From positions 1 through 64,000 of IMG/VR virus record IMGVR_UViG_3300026518_000009: a stretch of DNA of 64,000 nt; one strand, given 5' to 3'. Under the pieces are notes generated by a model. That model was not told where the DNA came from. It saw only the letters and a list, made by a program, of their open reading frames with translations, and searched no databases. The position numbers were made by a program, and so were the translations under genes. Positions 52,636 to 55,225 of this stretch are shown piece by piece (within the stretch, counting starts at the first letter, position 1; every line of letters begins with the position of its first letter). This DNA is from a virus.

Positions 52636-52740
52636 TTAAATTATTTTAATTAATAAATATATTGCAGCAATAATAAGTATACTTATTAGAAATATAACTA
52701 TTATATTACCTGCAATGATTAATATTTTATCTGTTTTCAT
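52636..52740 (-). CDS. 34-aa hydrophobic micropeptide (not in track)
   Basis: MKTDKILIIAGNIIVIFLISILIIAAIYLLIKII*; ATGA-coupled to the upstream peptide. Confidence 0.55.
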   Translation of the reverse strand: MKTDKILIIAGNIIVIFLISILIIAAIYLLIKII

Positions 52741-52856
52741 AATATAGATATTAAATTACTAATAATTATATAAAATCCATATATAGCAATAGCAATAGCT
52801 CCAATTAATGTTAATGTTGAACCTACTACTACTATAAAATTTACAATAGTTTTCAT
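52737..52856 (-). CDS. 39-aa hydrophobic micropeptide (not in track)
   Basis: MKTIVNFIVVVGSTLTLIGAIAIAIYGFYIIISNLISIL*; A-rich leader. Confidence 0.55.
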   Translation of the reverse strand: MKTIVNFIVVVGSTLTLIGAIAIAIYGFYIIISNLISIL

Positions 52857-52873
52857 TTTATTATGTTTTAAAA

Positions 52874-52936
52874 AGAGTGTGCAACCGTGTATTATCCATC
52901 TCCTCTGCCCCACTTTCGGTAATTGTTACACACTCT
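52874..52936 (-). other. GC-rich stem with 39-nt insert (terminator-like or structured RNA)
   Basis: Minus-strand AGAGUGUGUAAC/GUUGCACACUCU 12-bp stem with one U-G pair, followed by a U run. Confidence 0.55.
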
Positions 52937-52941
52937 ACTAT

Positions 52942-53202
52942 TTAATTATATTTAAAAGTTAAACATGGATATAAATTATCAATGCTTACATTATGTAATT
53001 CATCAATAATTTCAATTATTGCTGTATTATCATCATTATTAACTTCTACAACAACTCCTAAATAACGTTCTTCACCAAGATAATATATTATTTTATCACC
53101 TGGTTTTAAATTAGATTTCATTCTCTTTGTTTGTGTTTCTATATACCATACATATCTAACACCTAATAATAATAATATTATTATTCCTATTTTAAGTATC
53201 AT
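52942..53202 (-). CDS. YajC-like single-TM protein
   Basis: N-terminal TM helix, then MKSNLKPGDKII...GVVVEVNNDDNTAIIEI. Confidence 0.45.
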   Translation of the reverse strand: MILKIGIIILLLLGVRYVWYIETQTKRMKSNLKPGDKIIYYLGEERYLGVVVEVNNDDNTAIIEIIDELHNVSIDNLYPCLTFKYN

Positions 53203-53236
53203 TGTTTTTATTATTTATGATTAATAAATATATTTA

Positions 53237-53506
53237 AACACTATGCTTACTCATAGTGTTAAGGAACTTAATTAATACTAAATATATTAATCGACCTTAC
53301 ATCTAAATCGTTGACAGTAAGATTACTTGTTCCACTTATAACTTATCTAGAATTTATAAGGTATCTTTACAATTAGTTGAACAAGTTTAACTCTAATTGC
53401 AGTCCTCACTAATGTAGAGCAACTATCACTTTCTTAAATGCTATTATATCTCTAACCTTATATCTCAATTGAGTATATAAGTAACTTGATTATAGCTGTC
53501 ATATAG
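53237..53506 (-). ncRNA. Candidate structured non-coding RNA (about 270 nt)
   Basis: At least six stems in an intergenic spacer with no credible ORF; G-U pairs favour the minus strand. Confidence 0.45.
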
Positions 53507-53830
53507 TTAGTTATTAAATAATAAACCTCCTATTGCAGCTCCTAACATTAATGTTAATATTAAAAATGTAAGTAACCAACCAATTGTTAGATTATTTACA
53601 TTATCAGTACCAGATACTATTATTGCTTTATAATATTTATTATTTTGTTTAATAATAATATTATTTTTAATATTACCAATATTTGAAACATGTACCATCA
53701 ATACTGTATCAGCTTTATTAGCATTAAATATTTTCATTGCAGATAATGGAATACTATTTACTTGCTTTACTGTTGTACTACATGCAGAAACTAACATTAT
53801 TGTAAATAGAATAATAATTAATTTTTTCAT
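53507..53830 (-). CDS. Lipoprotein with C-terminal TM helix
   Basis: MKKLIIILFTIMLVSA-C lipobox; C-terminal IGWLLTFLILTLMLGAAIGGLLF. Confidence 0.7.
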   Translation of the reverse strand: MKKLIIILFTIMLVSACSTTVKQVNSIPLSAMKIFNANKADTVLMVHVSNIGNIKNNIIIKQNNKYYKAIIVSGTDNVNNLTIGWLLTFLILTLMLGAAIGGLLFNN

Positions 53831-53860
53831 TATTTTAATATTATTTATGATTAATAAAAT

Positions 53861-53982
53861 TACTACCTTTAAAACTATTTCTAGTAAAACTTGGTAGTAT
53901 CGAAATTAGTTTTAATTATTGTGGCATCTCACCACTTTACACTAATATTAAGTGTGGCTGTTGTAACTAGCTTAACCGGTCT
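53861..53982 (-). promoter_or_regulatory. Structured 5' leader or small RNA upstream of the lipoprotein gene
   Basis: Consecutive hairpins including TACTACC/GGTAGTA with an inner ACUA-GAAA-UAGU GNRA loop on the minus strand. Confidence 0.4.
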
Positions 53983-54400
53983 ATTTTTTATAATATTTTA
54001 TTTTTGTACTTTTTTACATTACATTATATAAACAAATTATATATTATTAATAAAATATAGTAAAATGTTTATTATTTACTAAATGTTGATTATTATTGAT
54101 TAATGCTTATTGCATGATTTATAGATAGTTATTAAATAGTGATTAATAAGTATGTAATAATGATTAGAAAATTACATTATATAATAAGGGGAAAATAGAG
54201 AGAGTTATGGTGAGAAGTAAAGAGGGAAGAAGGGATAGTTCCACACTTCATTCTTTATCTTTACATTAATTACATTTATGTATTATCCTTCATTTTATCT
54301 TTCACAAAATATTTATTATTTTCTTGTTATTTATAATTTATAATTCTATTTATTACTTTATTACATCATTTATCTATATCTTGATAGTATATGTTTGTAT

Positions 54401-54625
54401 TTAAGATATTGGTTCTTCAATTAAAGAATCATCTATTTCAACTGTTTCTATTGCAACTATTTTAAATATAGGTATATATTTATTAGAAGAAAAATAATTA
54501 TAACCTAATACTTCATATGCAATTTTAATAACATTAATACCAAGTTTTTCAACTTTACTATTATTTGTAGCAAGATATTCTTTTACTACATTTCCTTCTT
54601 CTGCATAAATTTTATTAAAAATCAT
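54401..54625 (-). CDS. Hypothetical protein
   Basis: 74-aa ORF with A-rich leader. Confidence 0.5.
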   Translation of the reverse strand: MIFNKIYAEEGNVVKEYLATNNSKVEKLGINVIKIAYEVLGYNYFSSNKYIPIFKIVAIETVEIDDSLIEEPIS

Positions 54626-54651
54626 TATCTTAAATTTTTATTTTATTATAT

Positions 54652-54685
54652 AAAAAAAGCAACAGGATATTTCTACCCTGCTGCT
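54652..54685 (-). terminator. Intrinsic terminator
   Basis: Minus strand AGCAGCAGG-N10-CCTGTTGCT followed by a T run. Confidence 0.8.
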
Positions 54686-54693
54686 ATGTTGTT

Positions 54694-55089
54694 TTATGAT
54701 TCTGTTGATACAGCTTCTTCTTGTTGAGCTTTAACAATTTCATCACCAATCAAGACATCATCAACGATATTAACATCACCAATCAAAGATGTAGCCTGAA
54801 TAATCTCAATAGGTGAAGAAATTTCACCAAGATTTGTTACAGACCAAACTTTAGATATACCATTTCTTCCATCGTGTGTCTGATATTCATGGCGACGATT
54901 GGTATCATTTACAGAAATTGCATAAGTTTTACCAACTTCAAATCCATACATTTCTGCGGATGTTCCAGCCATTACTATCATACTACGTGGATATGCTCCA
55001 GCAATTGGAGAACAAAATACAGGCATCTTACCTTGTTTATCAGGAACAGTACTTCCCTGATATTCACTAATTTTTACTACTGCGTTCAT
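54694..55089 (-). CDS. First gene of the leftward unit, hypothetical protein
   Basis: 131 aa, higher GC than neighbours, with its own terminator. Confidence 0.75.
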   Translation of the reverse strand: MNAVVKISEYQGSTVPDKQGKMPVFCSPIAGAYPRSMIVMAGTSAEMYGFEVGKTYAISVNDTNRRHEYQTHDGRNGISKVWSVTNLGEISSPIEIIQATSLIGDVNIVDDVLIGDEIVKAQQEEAVSTES

Positions 55090-55225
55090 AGCTATAAATT
55101 TTTGTGCAATAGTCCTGAGCTATTGCGGTTATTGTTAAATCTGTATCCAGGAAATACAGATACCAACGGGGATACCGCAGGCTGAATTTTAGTATGGGGT
55201 CTAAGAATAAGGTGTTCCACACTCT

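Follow-up and report, generated by a model that had tools for sequence, protein, structure and literature searches.

A putative kissing-hairpin leader RNA with an embedded small open reading frame at the head of the replication operon of a divergent crAss-like phage

How infection starts in crAss-like phages is poorly understood. Their injected RNA polymerase (RNAP) has no known promoter, and the abundant early noncoding RNAs (ncRNAs) of phage phi14:2 have no known function. The question arises at a gene-poor stretch on the minus strand (positions 52636–55180) of IMG/VR record IMGVR_UViG_3300026518_000009, a phage genome whose probable source run is a hydrothermal-vent metagenome (the vent phage herein). 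The window analyzed is the first 64 kb of this 80,246-bp record, which is estimated to be 87% complete. An earlier reading of the same DNA from its letters (the sequence-only reading) had proposed an early envelope-protein cassette interleaved with structured RNA spacers, acting in envelope remodelling or superinfection exclusion. Taken as a whole, there is nothing unusual about the stretch: like other phage early operons, it combines leaders and terminators with membrane microproteins. One element in it is new and is well supported by sequence comparison: a conserved leader, predicted to form kissing hairpins and carrying an embedded small open reading frame (ORF), upstream of an uncharacterized protein family.

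The structured leader (55090..55223, minus strand; 134 nt, GC 0.40) starts with AGTGTGGAAC and precedes the first gene of the unit, which encodes a 131-amino acid (aa) protein. Two mutually exclusive helices can form at its 5′ end, either an apex hairpin spanning 55227–55202 or a pairing of 55223–55217 with 55197–55191. Further helices lie at 55182–55162, 55161–55139 (H1), and 55126–55106 (H2). H1 and H2 carry complementary loops (UCCUG and CAGGA), and an unpaired 16-nt A/U-rich tail separates H2 from the ATG of the 131-aa gene. Relative to dinucleotide shuffles, the leader folds with a z score of −2.83 on the minus strand vs −0.49 on the plus strand. This strand specificity, together with covariation in relatives, bears out the structured leader noticed in the sequence-only reading. 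Directly upstream is a hexamer array, (TTAATG)n, at 55226..55334 on the minus strand (Tandem Repeats Finder: period 6, 18 copies, 73% matches; GC 0.16). Its minus-strand fold has a z score of −8.5 because the repeat unit is, as RNA (GUUAAU), self-complementary via G·U pairs. The array is most likely a promoter or upstream region.

Conservation of the leader was assessed in three relatives (P0002, P0124, and P0205) whose ORF calls run across it. In P0002, with a main protein 84% identical to that of the vent phage, the leader is read in frame GTG-TGG-AAC. In P0124 (main protein 61% identical) it is read in frame AGT-GTG-GAA and fused to the gene, and P0205 is a separate 49-aa call on a 2481-bp contig that also carries P0003 (main protein 74% identical). 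Codon identity is complete over the first 20 codons in P0002 and over a run of 18 in P0124, which makes the leader more conserved than the 131-aa protein. The relatives' bases were inferred from translations, with third codon positions unseen and an ungapped alignment assumed, and the tested structure was itself derived from the vent-phage sequence; on these terms, none of the 86 pair cells (29 predicted pairs across three relatives) holds an impossible pair, vs 18–30 of 86 in controls with the 3′ partner slid by 1–3 nt. All 19 cells in which both bases are determined can pair. Five determined double changes are compensatory, one in H1 (55156–55144, U-A to A-U) and four in H2 (55126–55106, G-C to U-A; 55122–55110, U-A to C-G; 55121–55111, A-U to G-C; and 55120–55112, G-C to U-A). 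The apex hairpin has one further determined double change (A-U to G-C), and both alternative 5′ helices fit the relatives. Across the H1/H2 region, 15 of 21 residues differ in P0205 with the helices kept. The only invariant residues there are a proline (CCN) and a glycine (GGN), which supply the CC and GG of the complementary loops and thus support the idea of a kissing-loop interaction. Covariation had been named in the sequence-only reading as a way to check its RNA claims, and for the leader the outcome is positive: judged by compensatory substitutions, it appears to be a conserved, putatively cis-regulatory structured RNA. An additional upstream helix (55229–55224/55211–55206) was rejected, as P0205 makes two of its pairs impossible.

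The leader also contains a 42-codon ORF with a GTG start (55092..55220, minus strand). The leader encloses it completely, and only 2 nt separate its TAG from the ATG that starts the 131-aa gene. The start is an ATG in P0124. The frame is open in every genome where it is visible (four genomes) and is called by gene finders, as 79 aa here (P0204), as 49 aa on the P0003 contig (P0205), and as an in-frame fusion in P0124. The first 21 codons are invariant, and the first 60 nt of the leader are unchanged in P0002 even at third positions of the small ORF, which indicates nucleotide-level constraint. The fusions to the main gene in P0002 and P0124 are in different frames, and indels before the ATG are therefore tolerated. 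We conclude from these comparisons that, in the 3′ half of the leader, the predicted RNA structure is the selected feature. The small ORF may nevertheless be translated, for example to couple translation to the start of the 131-aa gene, which lacks a Shine-Dalgarno (SD) sequence.

The product of the 131-aa gene (54694..55089, minus strand; GC 0.35) is a soluble protein that combines a beta-barrel with a C-terminal helix and an acidic tail. At least 79 homologs were identified at E ≤ 1e-3 among 1.8 billion representatives, all of them uncharacterized. Searches with the family (59 members) yielded no match in Pfam or PHROGs, and a profile search of the PDB was also empty. An AlphaFold2 model built from a 59-sequence alignment (predicted local distance difference test [pLDDT] 95) has long beta strands arranged as a barrel plus the C-terminal helix. 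Foldseek matches to this model are weak (E 0.03–0.5, TM-score about 0.3) and are almost all of OB, SSB, S1, or CSD types. The best VIA match is likewise weak (Z 3.9) and is the Pf3 single-stranded DNA-binding protein (SSB); other weak structure matches include bacterial SSB, RPA70N, S1/CSD, and phage SSBs. An Atlas search leads to SSB and DUF3127 clusters. Profiles for SSB (PF00436) and DUF3127 do not include the protein, and DUF3127 (PF11325) has no match in the vent-phage genome. The modeled fold is a lead that the protein is OB-like and perhaps nucleic-acid-binding. Members of the family were not found in phi14:2 or in four crAss-like IMG/VR records.

An intrinsic terminator (54651..54685, minus strand) follows the 131-aa gene, with a 12-bp stem (5 G-C pairs), a 4-nt loop, and a tail of seven T residues. 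The stem-loop and tail (54685–54658) fold with a z score of −5.2, and none of 200 shuffles was as good, in agreement with the terminator that had been proposed here. IMG/VR was scanned for DNA of relatives using the 131-aa protein, its alignments, the helicase, P0010, P0128, and the 18-nt leader core as queries. These scans recovered nothing but helicase loci with at most 37% identity and a single distant locus (L047), and two scans of JGI metagenomes gave nothing or 3–4 kb helicase contigs that stop short of the cassette. At L047, the homolog of the 131-aa protein has 35% identity and its gene is again GC-rich. An AT-rich tandem repeat (5940–5985) lies upstream, in the same position as the hexamer array, and an 11-bp terminator with a tail of eight T residues (6406–6431) follows. 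A promoter-proximal, self-terminated, and probably highly expressed unit seems, from this comparison, to be a trait of the family. A tRNA-like gene, with catt as a four-base anticodon and without an amino acid assignment, was detected by ARAGORN at 6951–7028 of the same locus, in a 312-nt gap two genes past the homolog.

The unit heads one of two divergent modules in a genome with a GC content of 24%. A superfamily 1 (SF1) Dda-like helicase at 49579–51009 has 35%–37% identity to helicases of cr127_1, crAss002, and Carjivirus communis. It belongs to a leftward block running from 55089 to 28289 in which an SF2 helicase, a DNA ligase, and also a DNA polymerase matching phrog_1252 are encoded; in phi14:2, it is this module that opens with the early genes. 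A rightward block from 56164 carries an exonuclease and a large terminase matching phrog_6681. A 5220-aa ORF at 12452–28114 is a candidate crAss-type RNAP. These hallmarks and the module layout place the vent phage in Crassvirales, as a divergent crAss-like phage by sequence, and positions 52636–55180 correspond to the predicted promoter-proximal (5′) end of the leftward replication-module operon. No DNA or protein match to the cassette was found among GenBank phages, and no similar stretch was recognized in the other genomes scanned. A scan for sigma-70-type promoters returned 75 sites vs 58.5 expected and is uninformative in DNA this AT-rich.

The six ORFs and the loose packing described in the sequence-only reading are present. 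The coding fraction of 52636–55180 on the minus strand is 0.56. In a crude ORF tiling with ATG starts, the median gap between genes is 6 nt genome-wide, and three of the five gaps of ≥200 nt are located here or adjacent. One gap in this tiling, at 29035–29429, is an artefact of the crude ORF caller. Neutral intergenic DNA has a GC content of 0.13–0.16 and neighboring coding sequence 15%–21%. The non-coding elements of the stretch are higher, at 40% for the leader, 36% for a GC-rich stem, 33% for a second AGTGTGGAAC element (site-B), 30% for a hairpin cluster, and 27% for a 304-nt spacer. Non-coding islands above the GC content of neighboring coding sequence hint indirectly at a function for these elements. 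After the terminator comes a 74-aa ORF (54401..54625, minus strand), which encodes a soluble protein with no detectable relatives in profile libraries. By hydrophobicity, neither this protein nor the 131-aa protein has a transmembrane segment or membrane features.

Two long gene-free spacers follow, both read on the minus strand. The first (53831..54400; 570 nt) contains AU-rich stretches (GC 0.13–0.16), site-B, the hairpin cluster (53990–53859, GC 0.30), and a 20-mer, and has no ORF under table 11 or with TGA=W and TAG=Q. The second (53203..53506; 304 nt) contains several good hairpins, ends with the same 20-mer (GC 0.27 without it), and has no ORF of ≥25 aa on either strand. The 304-nt spacer folds with a z score of −2.18 (1 of 100 dinucleotide shuffles as good; −0.7, −1.0, and −2.25 for its parts) and the 570-nt spacer with −1.65 (+0.43, −1.29, and −0.42 for its parts; −1.22 for the hairpin cluster). 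The genome background, estimated on the transcribed strand from 466 windows of 120 nt each, has a mean z score of −0.5, a standard deviation of 1.4, and 10% of windows below −2. The spacers fall within it and are therefore not outliers. A z score of −8.5 for window 54121–54240 was discarded as an artefact of near-zero variance in a pyrimidine tract. Rfam at gathering level gave 0 matches in the whole window, and an E-value search of 52500–56200 gave only two chance microRNA matches (E 0.98 and 4.5), with no match to the leader or the spacers in either search. No tRNA or tmRNA was found by ARAGORN. The clear fold outliers in the stretch are the terminator, the hexamer array, and the leader. The comparison with shuffled controls that the sequence-only reading had set for its RNAs thus came out in favor of the leader and the terminator, but the long spacers, including its 270-nt multi-stem RNA, do not stand out as structured RNAs or ncRNA genes.

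Two short sequences recur within the stretch. The 20-mer TTTATTAATCATAAATAATA, described in the sequence-only reading as an identical leader of two genes, has exactly two copies in the 80-kb genome (53858–53839 and 53228–53209). These are located 7–8 nt upstream of the ATGs of a 107-aa and an 86-aa gene, within a homology of ~47 nt. The exact 10-mer AGTGTGGAAC also has two copies in 80 kb, both on the minus strand, at 55223 and 54247. Each is preceded by a purine-rich or hexamer-periodic tract and followed by a C/U-rich tract, and the flanks can pair so as to place the motif at a hairpin apex. In site-B (54211..54265, minus strand; motif 54247–54238, GC 0.33) the purine-rich arm pairs with the C/U-rich arm, as at the leader, and the hairpin has a z score of −1.98. 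Copies with 1 mismatch number 5 vs 1.0 expected, and 2 of 100 shuffles reach 5. One of these copies, AGTGTGTAAC at 52934, forms the 5′ arm of a GC-rich long stem (52869..52936, minus strand; GC 0.36) with a 12-bp outer stem (52936–52874), a purine-rich internal loop, and a following U5. This stem, with z scores of −2.35 on the minus and −2.07 on the plus strand, had also been picked out earlier, and its anatomy agrees with that description. It looks like a terminator or processing site. A 26-codon hydrophobic ORF (54244–54164, minus strand) has its GTG start in the second AGTGTGGAAC copy and C-rich codons that are atypical for the genome. It could be a fifth membrane micropeptide or merely the pyrimidine arm of the hairpin.

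The remaining four genes encode small predicted membrane proteins. The 107-aa protein (53507..53830, minus strand) is a predicted lipoprotein with a 17-residue signal sequence, a lipobox (V-S-A-C17) that fits the pattern [LVI][ASTVI][GAS]C, and hydrophobic segments at residues 1–24 and 78–107, the latter a C-terminal transmembrane helix; this is the topology that had been described. Its profile matches (Cor, Rz-like spanin, and LytA) are confined to the signal peptide, and an Atlas search returned nothing specific. The Cor match (phrog_1119, NF047972) scores 16.4 bits vs a cut-off of 31 and covers residues 1–34, with the PHROG match covering residues 1–23, and superinfection exclusion accordingly finds no profile support. 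The 86-aa protein (52942..53202, minus strand) has an N-terminal transmembrane segment (1–23) and a small four-strand beta domain, and a single-sequence AlphaFold2 model of low confidence (pLDDT 64) has a helix at 3–31 and four strands. Its earlier description as YajC-like holds for the topology, since YajC (PF02699/TIGR00739) also has an N-terminal transmembrane helix and a small beta-rich domain in about 80–110 aa, and the profile alignment spans model positions 5–64 of 78. However, the scores fall below both curated cut-offs (22.8 bits vs 28.2 for Pfam YajC and 15.1 vs 44.2 for TIGR00739), and NCBIfam yielded nothing above cut-off. The last two genes are wholly hydrophobic micro-ORFs (39 aa, 52856–52737; 34 aa, 52740–52636; minus strand) that overlap in ATGA and have whole-length Kyte-Doolittle values of 2.5 and 3.4, as expected of the two transmembrane micropeptides proposed. 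A GTG inside the GC-rich stem would lengthen the 39-aa micro-ORF in-frame to 58 aa (52737–52913), and either start may be the true one. By predicted topology, the idea of an envelope cassette may apply to four of the six genes, but not to the 131-aa and 74-aa genes, and it does not fit the first and best-conserved unit, which consists of a leader, a soluble beta-barrel gene, and a terminator.

The balance of this evidence tips slightly toward a promoter-proximal end of the replication operon that is made up of separately regulated small expression units and not of one envelope system. Unit 1 would comprise the AT-rich hexamer array, the 134-nt structured leader, the 131-aa gene, and the strong intrinsic terminator. 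The leader would act in cis on the translation or stability of the first gene, whose expression is probably very high, most likely in that ribosomes on the small ORF, or a bound protein, would open the kissing hairpins 16 nt upstream of the SD-less start. The terminator would limit read-through from the unit. Downstream, the 74-aa ORFan and the four membrane-protein genes would be expressed from behind long 5′ untranslated stretches with GC-rich islands, which also carry the second AGTGTGGAAC-capped hairpin and terminator-like stems. The duplicated 20-nt translation-initiation region would be expected to co-regulate the lipoprotein and YajC-like genes. The RNA-level control suggested in the sequence-only reading thus has good support at the leader and is plausible at the terminator-like stems, but does not extend to the long spacers as structured elements. 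The anatomy, the conserved and covarying leader, the terminator, the protein family with its fold class, and the membrane topology are observed here, whereas early expression, action in cis, and any role at the envelope are inferred.

Several observations weigh against this organization. The distant homolog locus L047 has no such leader, only a 68-nt AT-rich repeat upstream. The 304-nt and 570-nt spacers fold no better than the genome background, and no relatives of either were retrieved in the IMG/VR and JGI scans. The leader comparison depends on bases read back from translations. Finally, 11 of the 13 forced substitutions in P0002 fall on third codon positions of the small ORF (our own binomial estimate, ~0.003–0.01), and this 3-periodic pattern suggests that the leader may be partly a real coding gene.

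Carried to its end, that last pattern would make the leader a plain small protein-coding gene (42–79 aa) with an incidental structure. The open frame in four genomes, the calls by gene finders, the kept start codon (GTG or ATG), and a stop that abuts the next ATG all agree with such a gene. We nevertheless consider it quite improbable, because in P0205, where 15 of the 21 C-terminal residues are different, four determined pairs switch through compensatory double changes, because the invariance of the first 60 nt in P0002 includes third positions and points to nucleotide-level constraint, and because the different fusion frames of P0002 and P0124 show that indels before the ATG are tolerated. 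A different role for the 5′ end is suggested by phage N4, in which the early promoters are DNA hairpins of 5–7 bp with 3-nt loops that are read by an injected virion RNAP. The AGTGTGGAAC-capped hairpins (55223, 54247, and the degenerate copy at 52934) could by analogy be recognition sites for the injected virion RNAP, or a signal for a factor acting on the first transcripts, and the cassette would then comprise three early units. As RNAP sites they would be early promoters, with the conserved 5′ half of the leader serving as a DNA signal. The vent phage resembles N4 in its putative giant injected RNAP (the 5220-aa ORF) and in a short motif that recurs on one strand at hairpin apices in the first kilobases of an early unit. 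The three same-strand copies are 1.0 and 1.3 kb apart, each before a unit; exact copies occur nowhere else in 80 kb; and the motif and the next 60 nt are invariant, even at positions that vary further downstream. In line with this reading, the gp66 of phi14:2 is reported to accept only denatured or single-stranded DNA as a template in vitro, but no common motif was found upstream of early transcripts of that phage (bioRxiv 10.1101/2020.03.07.982082). Several of the vent-phage pairs are G·U and the helices covary like RNA, favoring an RNA on the minus strand, the stems and loops are much larger than those of N4 promoter hairpins, and the statistics of the 1-mismatch copies are weak. Both versions, RNAP site and transcript-borne signal, are in our view decidedly unlikely. 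If either is true, Crassvirales would gain its first early promoter, or early RNA signal, that is defined by sequence.

Other readings shift the emphasis from the leader to the rest of the cassette. The spacers, especially 53203–53506 and 53859–53990, might encode stand-alone abundant early ncRNAs, with the small genes as passengers. In phi14:2, transcription of the long early intergenic regions g004–g005 and g005–g006, whose function is not known, is reported to exceed that of most genes already at the earliest time point (bioRxiv 10.1101/2020.03.07.982082), and its early region is likewise gene-poor. In the vent phage the spacer GC islands (0.27–0.33 vs 0.13–0.16) and the hairpin followed by a U-rich stretch that ends each spacer before the shared 20-mer are consistent with such RNAs. 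Set against this are fold z scores within the genome background and the lack of any Rfam family, of sequence similarity to phi14:2, and of relatives in the IMG/VR and JGI scans, and we regard stand-alone ncRNAs as unlikely. The run of membrane proteins has also to be compared with a displaced lysis cassette, in which the lipoprotein would be a u-spanin and the micro-transmembrane proteins a holin and antiholin. The lipobox and C-terminal transmembrane helix of the 107-aa protein are the topology of a u-spanin (T1 gp11 type), weak Rz-like spanin profile matches exist, and three more small transmembrane proteins adjoin. However, the spanin matches cover only the signal peptide (E 0.06–0.09), the neighboring 164-aa and 111-aa proteins have no lysis-enzyme match, and the location is the head of the replication module. 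Of the endolysins, only four common families were searched for (Amidase_2, Phage_lysozyme, Amidase_3, and Peptidase_M15_4), and none was found in the 87%-complete record. A lysis function for these genes is very improbable.

For the favored arrangement of small regulated units, two kinds of known control are instructive. Phage SSBs regulate translation through operators such as the leader pseudoknot of T4 gene 32 and the site bound by the f1 gene V protein on gene II mRNA. The vent-phage leader is comparable in that a folded element with predicted tertiary pairing and then an unpaired A/U-rich stretch precede the early gene of a small, predicted OB-like protein. This protein is probably abundant and has a filamentous-phage ssDNA-binding protein as its best VIA match. 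The leader differs in that two putative kissing hairpins and an overlapping small ORF take the place of a pseudoknot and its long AU tract. The protein's fold is weakly assigned (Z 3.9), and any binding by it would be putative. Translational coupling to an upstream ORF or leader peptide occurs in bacterial and phage operons. In the vent phage, similarly, a short ORF ends 2 nt before the main start, there is no SD sequence, and ribosomes translating the short ORF would melt the hairpins that it contains. Here, however, translation of the short ORF is putative, its N-terminal 21 codons are constrained at the nucleotide level, and no alternative terminator/antiterminator pairing is seen in the leader.

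The closest precedent, by analogy, is the early region of the Cellulophaga crAss-like phage phi14:2. Both phages are crAss-like, both have an early-gene unit that starts with small ORFans including a membrane protein (the OmpA-domain g002 in phi14:2), and in both, unusually long stretches without genes interrupt a genome that is otherwise densely packed. The stretches in phi14:2 are about 0.7 and 1.7 kb, with annotated ORFs there later removed, vs 304 and 570 nt in the vent phage. The two regions have no sequence similarity, and the 131-aa family was not found in phi14:2. Transcription was measured in phi14:2, whereas the vent phage is known here from its sequence. In crAss001, the early genes form a small operon (PMC8375218).

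The leader and the beta-barrel family provide concrete, mutable targets for testing early gene control in Crassvirales, namely compensatory mutants of the stems and loops and nucleic-acid binding by the 131-aa protein. The family is widespread, and even distantly related members are followed by a terminator of their own. The membrane microproteins and long spacers that make up the remainder of the cassette are typical phage "dark matter" and, at present, add little.

Outside the cassette, a 1.07-kb AT-rich divergent region adjoins the 5′ end of the leftward unit. It contains a second hexamer array (TATTAA × 11.7, 55660–55729) with periodicities of 12, 24, and 36 nt. This array may serve for protein binding, be origin-like DNA, or simply reflect low complexity. 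Across this region, the first rightward gene (56164–56562, 132 aa) is a counterpart, in size and position, of the first leftward gene; it has no family match. Beyond the window, a 307-nt gap with 28% GC in the ATG-only tiling (79138–79444) is probably coding sequence with a non-ATG start and not a spacer. Within the replication module, two 120-nt windows on the minus strand fold strongly (32761–32880, z −8.2; 38521–38640, z −6.0), the second spanning an 88-nt, 24%-GC gap at 38497–38584. Both are probably terminators or other RNA elements.

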